The position numbers were made by a program, and so were the translations under genes. Under the pieces are notes generated by a model that made no database searches, was not told the DNA's origin, and was given only the letters and a program-made list of their open reading frames with translations. From Eledone cirrhosa (lineage: Eukaryota), in assembly GCA_964016885.1 (NCBI GenBank), contig OZ024750.1:868001-932000 (forward strand): a stretch of DNA of 64,000 nucleotides. The letters run 5' to 3'. The number at the start of each line of letters is the position of its first letter. Position 1 is the first letter of the stretch. Of this stretch, positions 35,301 to 37,370 are shown piece by piece.

Positions 35301-37370
35301 TTAATCCTACATTGCAGCTCTGCTTCTATAATGATATTCTCTACCATTAGACCAGTTAATATTTTAGCTTGACGTGAAGCTGTTTATTTCATTGGAAGTA
35401 GTATCTTGCTTTATATGTTTTAATATTTATTATTTATTTTTGTTTGAATATTCATAGAAAATATTGCATATTATGTGATTACTAAATCAGCTTATGAATA
35501 TTTTTTTCATACATTAAATATGAATGAAAAAATAAAAAGATGTTTAAAGCTTCATTTTGAAATAAAAACCAATAAACACTTACATTTAACTAAAAGGAAG
35601 TCACGGAATTCTTTATGGTTTGTGAAAATGGAAGGTGAAGGTAATACCGGACCAAATAATGGAACAGACTCTTCAGAGAATACAGAAAGTCTACAAAATA
35701 GAAAAAAAAAAAGTTATATATATATATTTAATATATTTATATATAAAAATATATTTTTGAAAGTTTTCATATCTTTCATTTTTTTTTCCCCTTTTTATTG
35801 TTTTACAACAATTTTCCACTCAATTTCACAATATATTTAACACCAAGATTCACCTTTAATGGACTTTCAAGAAAAAAGTGTAACAATGACATTGCCTGAA
35901 AATAATGAAATCCTCTGAACCCAAATAACAAAATATAAAAGTATAAAAATAATAATGATTATCTATATAAAACATATAGTTGACTATATCTGTAATGTAA
36001 TATAACTATATAATATAGTTGAGGGTTGACTATATCTGTAATGTAATATAACTATATAATATAGTTGAGGGTTGACTGAAAAGTTCTTACAGTTAGTCTA
36101 TACTATCATTGTCATATCTTTATTCATATAAAATTATATGAATTTACTAAATACTAAAATTAACCCTTTTGATACGAACTTGTGCGAAACTGTCTGTCTT
36201 TATGAAACAAAGCCTCCCGTTTAAAGAAGAAGATGAAAATGTATTTAATTAGAAATATGGAAATGAAAAGGTTAATAAAGAGAAAGACTATTTCTCAATG
36301 ACTTACTTAAATGCATCTTGTTCCTTGTTGTACATTACAACTGCATAAATATCTGACAGTAAAAGTTGAGGAAGTCAAACACAAACAACATTTGTTGGTT
36401 AATGTTTAGTTTACATCACTTATATGTGAAGGTGTGTGGCTTAGTGGTTAGAGCTTTGGGCTTGTAACAGGAGCTTGTGAGAAACAAATAGGAAGAGATA
36501 CTGTAGGAAGACCTATACAACCCATGCAAGCATGGAAAAGTAGATGTAACATGTTGATGATGATGATGATGACAACTATAATGATGATTATCATTTTAAC
36601 CCTTTAGCATTTAAACTGGCCGTATCTGACCAGAATTCTTTCACCACTTTCTGTTCAAACCAGCCATAACTGGTCACTCATACTTATGTTAAGGTATTGT
36701 TTTCAAAAGAAATAATATCAAAATCTCATAGATTTGATATTATGTGAGATATTATGTGAGATAAAGTGTTTACTGTGAAAATATAACAGTAAATATAGAG
36801 TAATGTAAATGGTAAAGGGTTAAGGAATATTAGAGATTCTATCAAAAGGATACGAGTAAAATGTGTCTTCATCATATTAGGCTTGAATATGGGCGGCTTT
36901 TGGAAATCACAGTCAAAATAAACAATATTAACAATATCATTACCAATATGTCTTTTTCTCTCAACCTGTAAACCAACAATATGAAAAACAAGGCAACTTT
37001 AGTAATCTGAAATTATCTTTATTATATGTGTGTGTTTGTGTGTATGAATGTGTTATATATATGTATATATAGAATAAGTAAAAGCGAAGTAGTTTCAAAT
37101 GTTCAAGTCCTTTAATAATAATGCTGTGATATATATTTCTATGATGACACTGGCCACACTGTTCTGTGTGCGAGTGTCGTGACATCATCAGACAGCTTGT
37201 TACATAATAAGGTTATGTTTCCGAGGCAATCCAAGTTGAATCGACATATATATGTATATATGTGTGTGTGTGTGTATGAATGCGTTATATATATATATGT
37301 GTATATATGTGTGTGTGTATGAATGTGTTATATATATATATGTGTATATATGTGTGTGTGTATGAATGTG

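Follow-up and report, generated by a model that had tools for sequence, protein, structure and literature searches.

Does a hammerhead motif that lies in sense orientation within an intron of a RapGAP gene of Eledone cirrhosa cut the transcript of its host, or is it carried there as part of something else? The question arises from a 64,000-nt stretch of genomic DNA (contig OZ024750.1 of assembly GCA_964016885.1, positions 868,001 to 932,000; hereafter the window), in which an initial annotation had singled out a solitary, "best-formed" hammerhead and proposed that it cleaves the pre-mRNA of GARNL3 close to a 3' splice site. We consider, with a probability of about 85%, that the motif belongs to a truncated and mutated copy of a high-copy, protein-less hammerhead repeat, that this copy was likely inserted into a TA repeat of the intron by a Penelope-like enzyme, and that it resides there as a passenger predicted to stay uncut.

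On the minus strand, the motif reads, in order, GCUGU, CUGAUGA, a 45-nt stem II region, GAAA, UAUAUAUC, and ACAGC (Table 1). The CUGANGA and GAAA boxes, a UH site, and stems I to III in type I order are all present, as is a short palindromic helix III (AUAUAUAU) suited to dimer folding. The parts named in the initial annotation, from the 5-bp stem I and the two boxes to the AUAU loop III, the AUC triplet, and the position of the cut, can all be read in the sequence. The motif is real and beyond chance, and a hammerhead descriptor gave eight matches in the window against a mean of 0.09 and a maximum of 1 in 200 dinucleotide shuffles; weaker descriptor matches lie at 1333 and 25406, both on the minus strand. 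The expectation that the motif would match hammerhead covariance models did not hold, with no match from Rfam at the gathering threshold and no hammerhead among the 17 matches at E≤10; we suspect that the Rfam models miss minimal hammerheads with a long stem II.

Table 1. Features of the hammerhead copy and its host intron (window coordinates)
Feature	Position	Strand	Basis or remark
RapGAP exon encoding KRHIGND	36853-36965	minus	Pfam Rap_GAP E 3.2e-09; 3' border approximate
Acceptor AG	36967-36966	minus	
Host intron, 3,028 nt, GT...AG	36966-39993	minus	upstream exon end located via loose end of spliced contig
Upstream RapGAP exon	39994-40092	minus	Pfam Rap_GAP E 9.9e-08
(TA)n/(CA)n minisatellite, 3' side of insertion	37025-37062	plus	sequence
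5'-truncated solo copy of repeat family A, 185 nt, unit positions 1-185	37063-37247	minus	blastn against 30 genomic loci
(TA)n/(TG)n minisatellite, 5' side of insertion	37248-37615	plus	sequence; repeat family D19
Type I minimal hammerhead	37196-37123	minus	read from sequence, and descriptor with shuffles
Stem I, 5 bp	GCUGU 37196-37192 / ACAGC 37127-37123	minus	sequence
Core boxes	CUGAUGA 37191-37185; GAAA 37139-37136	minus	sequence
Stem II region, 45 nt		minus	after CUGAUGA and one extra nucleotide
Helix III, 2 bp, palindromic AUAUAUAU, loop AUAU		minus	sequence
Cleavage triplet AUC	predicted cut between 37128 and 37127	minus	
G-to-A at CpG, stem II 3' strand	37145	minus	breaks C-G pair, creates UCAUCA
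Rare U-to-A at base next to GAAA (position 11.1)	37140	minus	
Upstream hairpin, GAAA at base and UA at end, hammerhead-like half module	37201-37221	minus	

The host context was likewise well judged from the outset. Three consecutive exons, namely, the KRHIGND exon and the two before it, match Rap_GAP (Pfam), and two downstream exons match CNH weakly, falling short of the Pfam cut-off (E 0.0018 and 0.081); because of these matches, a RapGAP-plus-CNH, GARNL3-like architecture is supported at the level of sequence. The asparagine of KRHIGND is one that we take, from Rap1GAP, to be the catalytic residue. The predicted cut falls 162 nt from the exon start at 36965, close to the 160 nt first estimated, with the motif in the intron and sense to the host gene. 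In one contig from a related organism, the KRHIGND exon and the upstream exon are joined, and a second contig (3,163 nt), whose run shares its organism code with the best DNA matches, covers just the KRHIGND exon (36850-36968); neither of the two shows the insertion in its own individual, and neither run is recorded as RNA. Two contigs run from the KRHIGND exon into the element, covering its first 31 nt without a difference, and because they span both, the insertion is not an assembly artefact, though the runs may come from the assembly's own sample.

The identity of the motif becomes clear when it is placed among its relatives. When the 161 nt surrounding the motif were searched against the 3.0-Gb genome of the organism itself, 1,035 candidates were returned, and the best 40 of these that were scored, the window itself included, were all full-length and 98 to 100% identical. 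A 28-mer from the 5' half of the element has 607 exact genomic copies (reversed control, 0), and the 3' half has 843 exact matches in three versions (806 + 28 + 9). The fuller copies of this repeat, here called family A, are tandem units of 1.26 to 1.32 kb, up to 10 in one inverted array, and contain no coding-like ORF of at least 150 aa. Many carry an inverted partial copy at their 5' side (L003, L014, L015, L017, L018, and L044 to L050 among the fetched loci). In the 30 top loci, which were chosen by likeness to the window copy and several of which lie within one array, 3' ends fall at unit position 168-181 (19 loci) or at about 251-259 (7 loci), with 4 running into the next unit, and nearly all lead into TA or TC repeats. 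One unit (L026:372-1668) has three GTGAGT splice-donor-like sites on its antisense strand and a strong pyrimidine tract followed by AG on its sense strand, which are possibly the remains of an intron of a Penelope-like element (PLE).

The amniote intronic hammerheads HH9, in RECK, and HH10 resemble the motif in their sense placement within introns. They are single-copy, deeply conserved, and canonical, with loop-loop contacts, whereas the window motif lies in a young, mutated fragment of a high-copy repeat, the 843 exact matches being far from the single copy of such domesticated hammerheads.

Within the window, blastn with one full unit found the window copy (96% identity) as its sole match, with no second or inverted copy of family A in the 64 kb. 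By alignment, the window copy is a short-ended, 5'-truncated form of family A, and its flanks show that it landed inside one TA-rich minisatellite. Near-perfect tandem arrays also occur elsewhere in the window, with units of 61 nt at 22809-24572, 36 nt at 33706-34833, and 40 nt at 6790-7729. As only 3 of 184 internal positions (37145, 37140, and 37098) differ from the family copy, the insertion is young. The equivalent of position 37140 is U in 834 of the 843 exact matches and A in 3, and 86 of 87 distinct related hammerheads also have U there; A at the equivalent of 37145 occurs in 29/843, and the two changes together in 1/843, namely, the window copy. The description "best-formed" therefore does not suit a motif with a helix III of 2 bp and two substitutions in stem II relative to its family. 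The U-to-A change also removes the in-frame stop of the family (CAU UGA to CAU AGA), leaving an 83-codon open frame through the element (37191-37063) that is likely accidental.

The two stem II substitutions acquire further meaning from their predicted effect on folding. UCAUCA, created at 37145, is complementary to UGAUGA of the core, and together with the change at 37140 it is predicted to pair the catalytic core with the motif's own stem II. Pairing of U7, G8, and A9 with the stem II 3' strand reaches a probability of 0.57 to 0.58 in the window copy against 0.00 to 0.25 in the family copy, and for two proximal pairs of stem II, the probabilities of 0.72 and 0.996 in the family copy are reduced to 0.03 and 0.00. 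The statement in the initial annotation that no antisense arm is present to sequester the motif thus holds in part: there is no inverted copy in the window, but by prediction the 3' strand of stem II captures the core, which gives the window copy an internal antisense arm. The core of the family copy is also mispaired by prediction (AUC with GAU, P 0.84), which agrees with the poor cotranscriptional cleavage of AUC hammerheads, the least efficient during transcription in the part of PMC1636495 available. By prediction, about 1e-5 of the window copy and 6e-6 of a family-type copy adopt the active monomer fold, and stem I formed with the core held open accounts for 5e-4 in each; as the two score equally poorly, the calculation, in which the energies ignore tertiary contacts and proteins, does not rank their activity. 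An extra nucleotide after A9 is likely in the family. In that register, the one described for PLEs, G faces A next to the catalytic G12 of the window copy; in the alternative register, the U-to-A change gains a U-A pair, and the effect of this substitution is therefore uncertain.

It could be speculated that the host has taken the motif into use, such that cleavage of the GARNL3-like pre-mRNA near the 3' splice site controls splicing or output. The sense orientation, the 162 nt to the exon, and the lack of an inverted copy in the window would suit such a role, and an intronic ribozyme of Cpeb3 that tunes its host gene is a precedent (available text of PMC10919898). Against this, the copy is young, with 3/184 internal differences from the family copy, both of its stem II changes depart from the family, and for any single copy among more than 800, lying in sense is an even-odds outcome. 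Moreover, introns in which slow hammerheads cut are still spliced and fast ribozymes block splicing, as described in the accessible portion of PMC2995048. We regard host use as highly improbable. The well-formed ribozyme cutting host pre-mRNA that was implied at the outset is not supported for a mutated, truncated mobile copy of a dimer-dependent type that has no partner in the window and a core predicted to be paired.

A weaker form of activity deserves more weight. The passenger could leak, with a small fraction of pre-mRNA cut by the motif alone, in trans with several hundred sister copies, or with a Penelope protein, leaving the gene unaffected. All core nucleotides and stem I are intact, and stem I is predicted to form at P 0.76 in its sequence context; sister copies are abundant, and an intact PLE protein is encoded in many near-identical copies (see below). 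With a helix III of 2 bp, the motif can also be set beside the axolotl hammerheads with a short helix III (helix length taken as such), for which the part of PMC7229834 at hand gives 6 to 22% monomer cleavage per hour. The AU-only dimer helix is weak, however (computed at -3.2 kcal/mol), the core is predicted to be paired, and the inefficiency of AUC triplets during transcription (PMC1636495, as above) points the same way. In the available sections of PMC4209133, minimal hammerheads did not cleave as single copies and cleaved little as dimers, and in those of PMC11167929, the hammerhead of an anole PLE stayed uncut without protein. Such leakage is unlikely on balance, and an uncut passenger remains the preferred reading.

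A third possibility concerns the register in which the ribozyme is read. The hairpin directly upstream of the motif (Table 1) could, with a 3-bp stem I, provide a GAAA-hairpin-UA module for a type II or III hammerhead that would need no dimer. In family A, the 6-bp hairpin after GAAA has 6/6 pairs in 42 of 44 copies and the 3-bp ACA/UGU stem is present in 37 of 44, and the module plus CUGANGA has 1,722 genomic matches. In family C, an older relative of family A, just 2 of 14 copies keep the 3-bp stem intact and 1 keeps the hairpin (broken in 13), family B is without the module, and no stem II partner lies upstream of that GAAA. As the module is not conserved, we reject this reading as scarcely credible and keep to the type I motif of the passenger copy.

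Comparison across families draws attention to the base of stem II. The pattern CTGANGA-TRTCAC-N12-40-GTCATT-GAAA has 7,016 genomic matches (control, 0), and the corresponding stem II base, 5'-U R U C A C ... G U C A U U-3', is found in at least three families with almost no other common sequence; between families A and B, there were only 10- to 13-nt matches among those listed. Within 87 distinct hammerheads of three related families at the fetched loci, counted apart from the window and the metagenome loci, the base adjoining GAAA can form the closing pair of stem II with the purine that stands second after A9 in 85, this pair being G-U or A-U. Family C varies between U, G, and A at the nucleotide that immediately follows A9, as expected of an unpaired extra nucleotide. 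The fourth position holds a fixed C-C mismatch (0/87 paired), and beyond it lie covarying pairs (A-U in 59 and G-C in 12; G-C in 60 and C-G in 17). Helix III is self-complementary at 8/8 positions in 81 of the 87, in five different sequences, and dimer folding in tandem arrays is thereby indicated. The six metagenome matches to the pattern were all set aside as chance, being bacterial-looking DNA without stems I and III.

Relatives of the motif are also present in the window. An inverted pair of family B occupies 63304-63728, with hammerheads at 63411 (minus) and 63621 (plus); this family has the stem II base and a tail motif in common with family A and makes up most of the first 100 listed among the 7,016 pattern matches. 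Two further minimal-hammerhead families, at 6094-6408 (6199 minus and 6303 plus) and at 58859 (minus), have an extra A and a G-U pair at the stem II base.

It is conceivable that family A and its relatives represent an undescribed hammerhead variant, in which the stem II base is a selected structure within a 1.3-kb retrozyme of 3 to 4 times the usual size; we find this doubtful. The structure would, for example, act as a switch or a docking site that silences the ribozyme until a Penelope protein or a partner unit binds. The common stem II base could also be explained by shared descent, the counted sequences being related and not independent events. Lunse, Weinberg and Breaker 2017 reportedly deals with hammerhead variants of PLEs. 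The stem II variant was not found described in the literature seen, and that study or the hammerhead lists of PMC4209133 and PMC8557442 may contain it.

How such a repeat could move can be approached through the features it has in common with known elements. According to the accessible text of PMC8557442, PLEs are marked by partial tandems with inverted arms, by a tail that may or may not be present, and by insertion into microsatellites; family A shows all of these, its inverted arm being 5'-truncated. For a Poseidon PLE, the available part of PMC11167929 reports two internal RT start sites and AT-rich targets, shown in vitro. It can therefore be hypothesized that the hammerheads of neighboring units would pair via the palindromic helix III, or be folded by a Penelope protein, and that the paired hammerheads would cut multimeric RNA into units. 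A Penelope-type RT/GIY-YIG protein may then nick AT-rich DNA and start reverse transcription at one of two sites in the RNA. For the window copy, the nearer site would have been used and synthesis would have ended after 185 nt, leaving a solo copy without a partner whose core later mutations may have closed.

In the fetched loci, no RT or GIY-YIG ORF of a PLE was linked to family A, and none lay directly upstream of such hammerheads. A PLE RT fragment that adjoins a family A copy (L016) was rejected as a partner; since its best other matches are 44 to 77% identical, it is an older element that hosts the repeat. PLE endonuclease ORFs in L158 and L175 were likewise rejected, as they lie on the opposite strand or downstream, with host repeats between. 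The genome does contain an intact Penelope-like ORF of 1,217 aa (L125:1022-4672, within G000:C1:247209500-247216500; also in L122 and L124). It lies in 4.1-kb tandem units with 20,279 candidate matches, and all 150 that were scored are 99 to 100% identical, which marks a very recent expansion. By inspection, the protein has an RT domain, a cysteine linker, and a GIY-YIG-like end (Pfam RVT_1 at E 1e-4 only), together with a long Asn-rich insert, and a canonical hammerhead with the extra U and a G-C pair follows 260 nt after the stop codon. As a relative of family A, this element was rejected, there being no DNA match to the family A unit among the matches listed.

Family A can be set beside several described systems. 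The minimal type I hammerheads in PLE pseudo-LTRs (Cervera and De la Pena 2014, PMC4209133), as far as the available text describes them, are alike in a stem I of 4 to 5 bp, a long stem II, an extra nucleotide after A9, and a tiny palindromic helix III, and there, too, truncated elements have left solo or inverted copies dispersed by the thousands. They differ in a highly conserved G10.1-C11.1 pair, where 85/87 of the hammerheads here have G-U or A-U followed by the fixed mismatched segment, and no RT ORF was found linked to family A. Animal non-LTR retrozymes (Cervera and de la Pena 2020, PMC7229834) are likewise built of tandem units that lack ORFs and have a single type I hammerhead per unit. 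Low GC and scattered solo monomers, many of them intronic, are further likenesses (PMC7229834; Li, Clavereau and Pollet 2026, bioRxiv 10.64898/2026.07.22.740005); in Xenopus tropicalis, about 44% of retrozyme monomers lie in introns, and retrozymes have been proposed to be PLE derived (same two sources, in the portions available). The tandem arrangement of retrozymes is present in family A as a family, the window copy being a partial monomer. Family A is unlike retrozymes in its unit of 1.26 to 1.32 kb, against 150 to 450 bp in the accessible part of PMC7229834, and in its inverted arms and two-ended tails, which are as in PLEs. The Poseidon element PAc of the green anole (Frangieh et al. 2024, PMC11167929, available text) is alike in two 3' ends downstream of the hammerhead, AT-rich targets, and little or no helix III; it is autonomous, with an ORF that starts in stem II, whereas the frame from the core AUG of family A stops at CAU-UGA after 15 codons. 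In origin, the window copy is ordinary, going back to a non-autonomous family, of the Penelope type or a large retrozyme, of which it is a decayed solo fragment.

In itself, the window copy matters little, as solo hammerhead PLE fragments in introns are a known and abundant class. The locus does offer a caution, in that a host function should be proposed for a clean-looking intronic hammerhead only after comparison with its repeat family. The family type and the window copy also form a natural allele pair for positions 10.1 and 11.1 and for core mispairing in minimal hammerheads, and the array at G000:C1:130882147-130893763 (part in L043), in which ten family A units are split four to six between the strands, is a natural place for dimer cleavage and 1.3-kb circles. 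If the stem II base is functional, it would add a structural variant and provide a handle on the role of hammerheads in PLEs.
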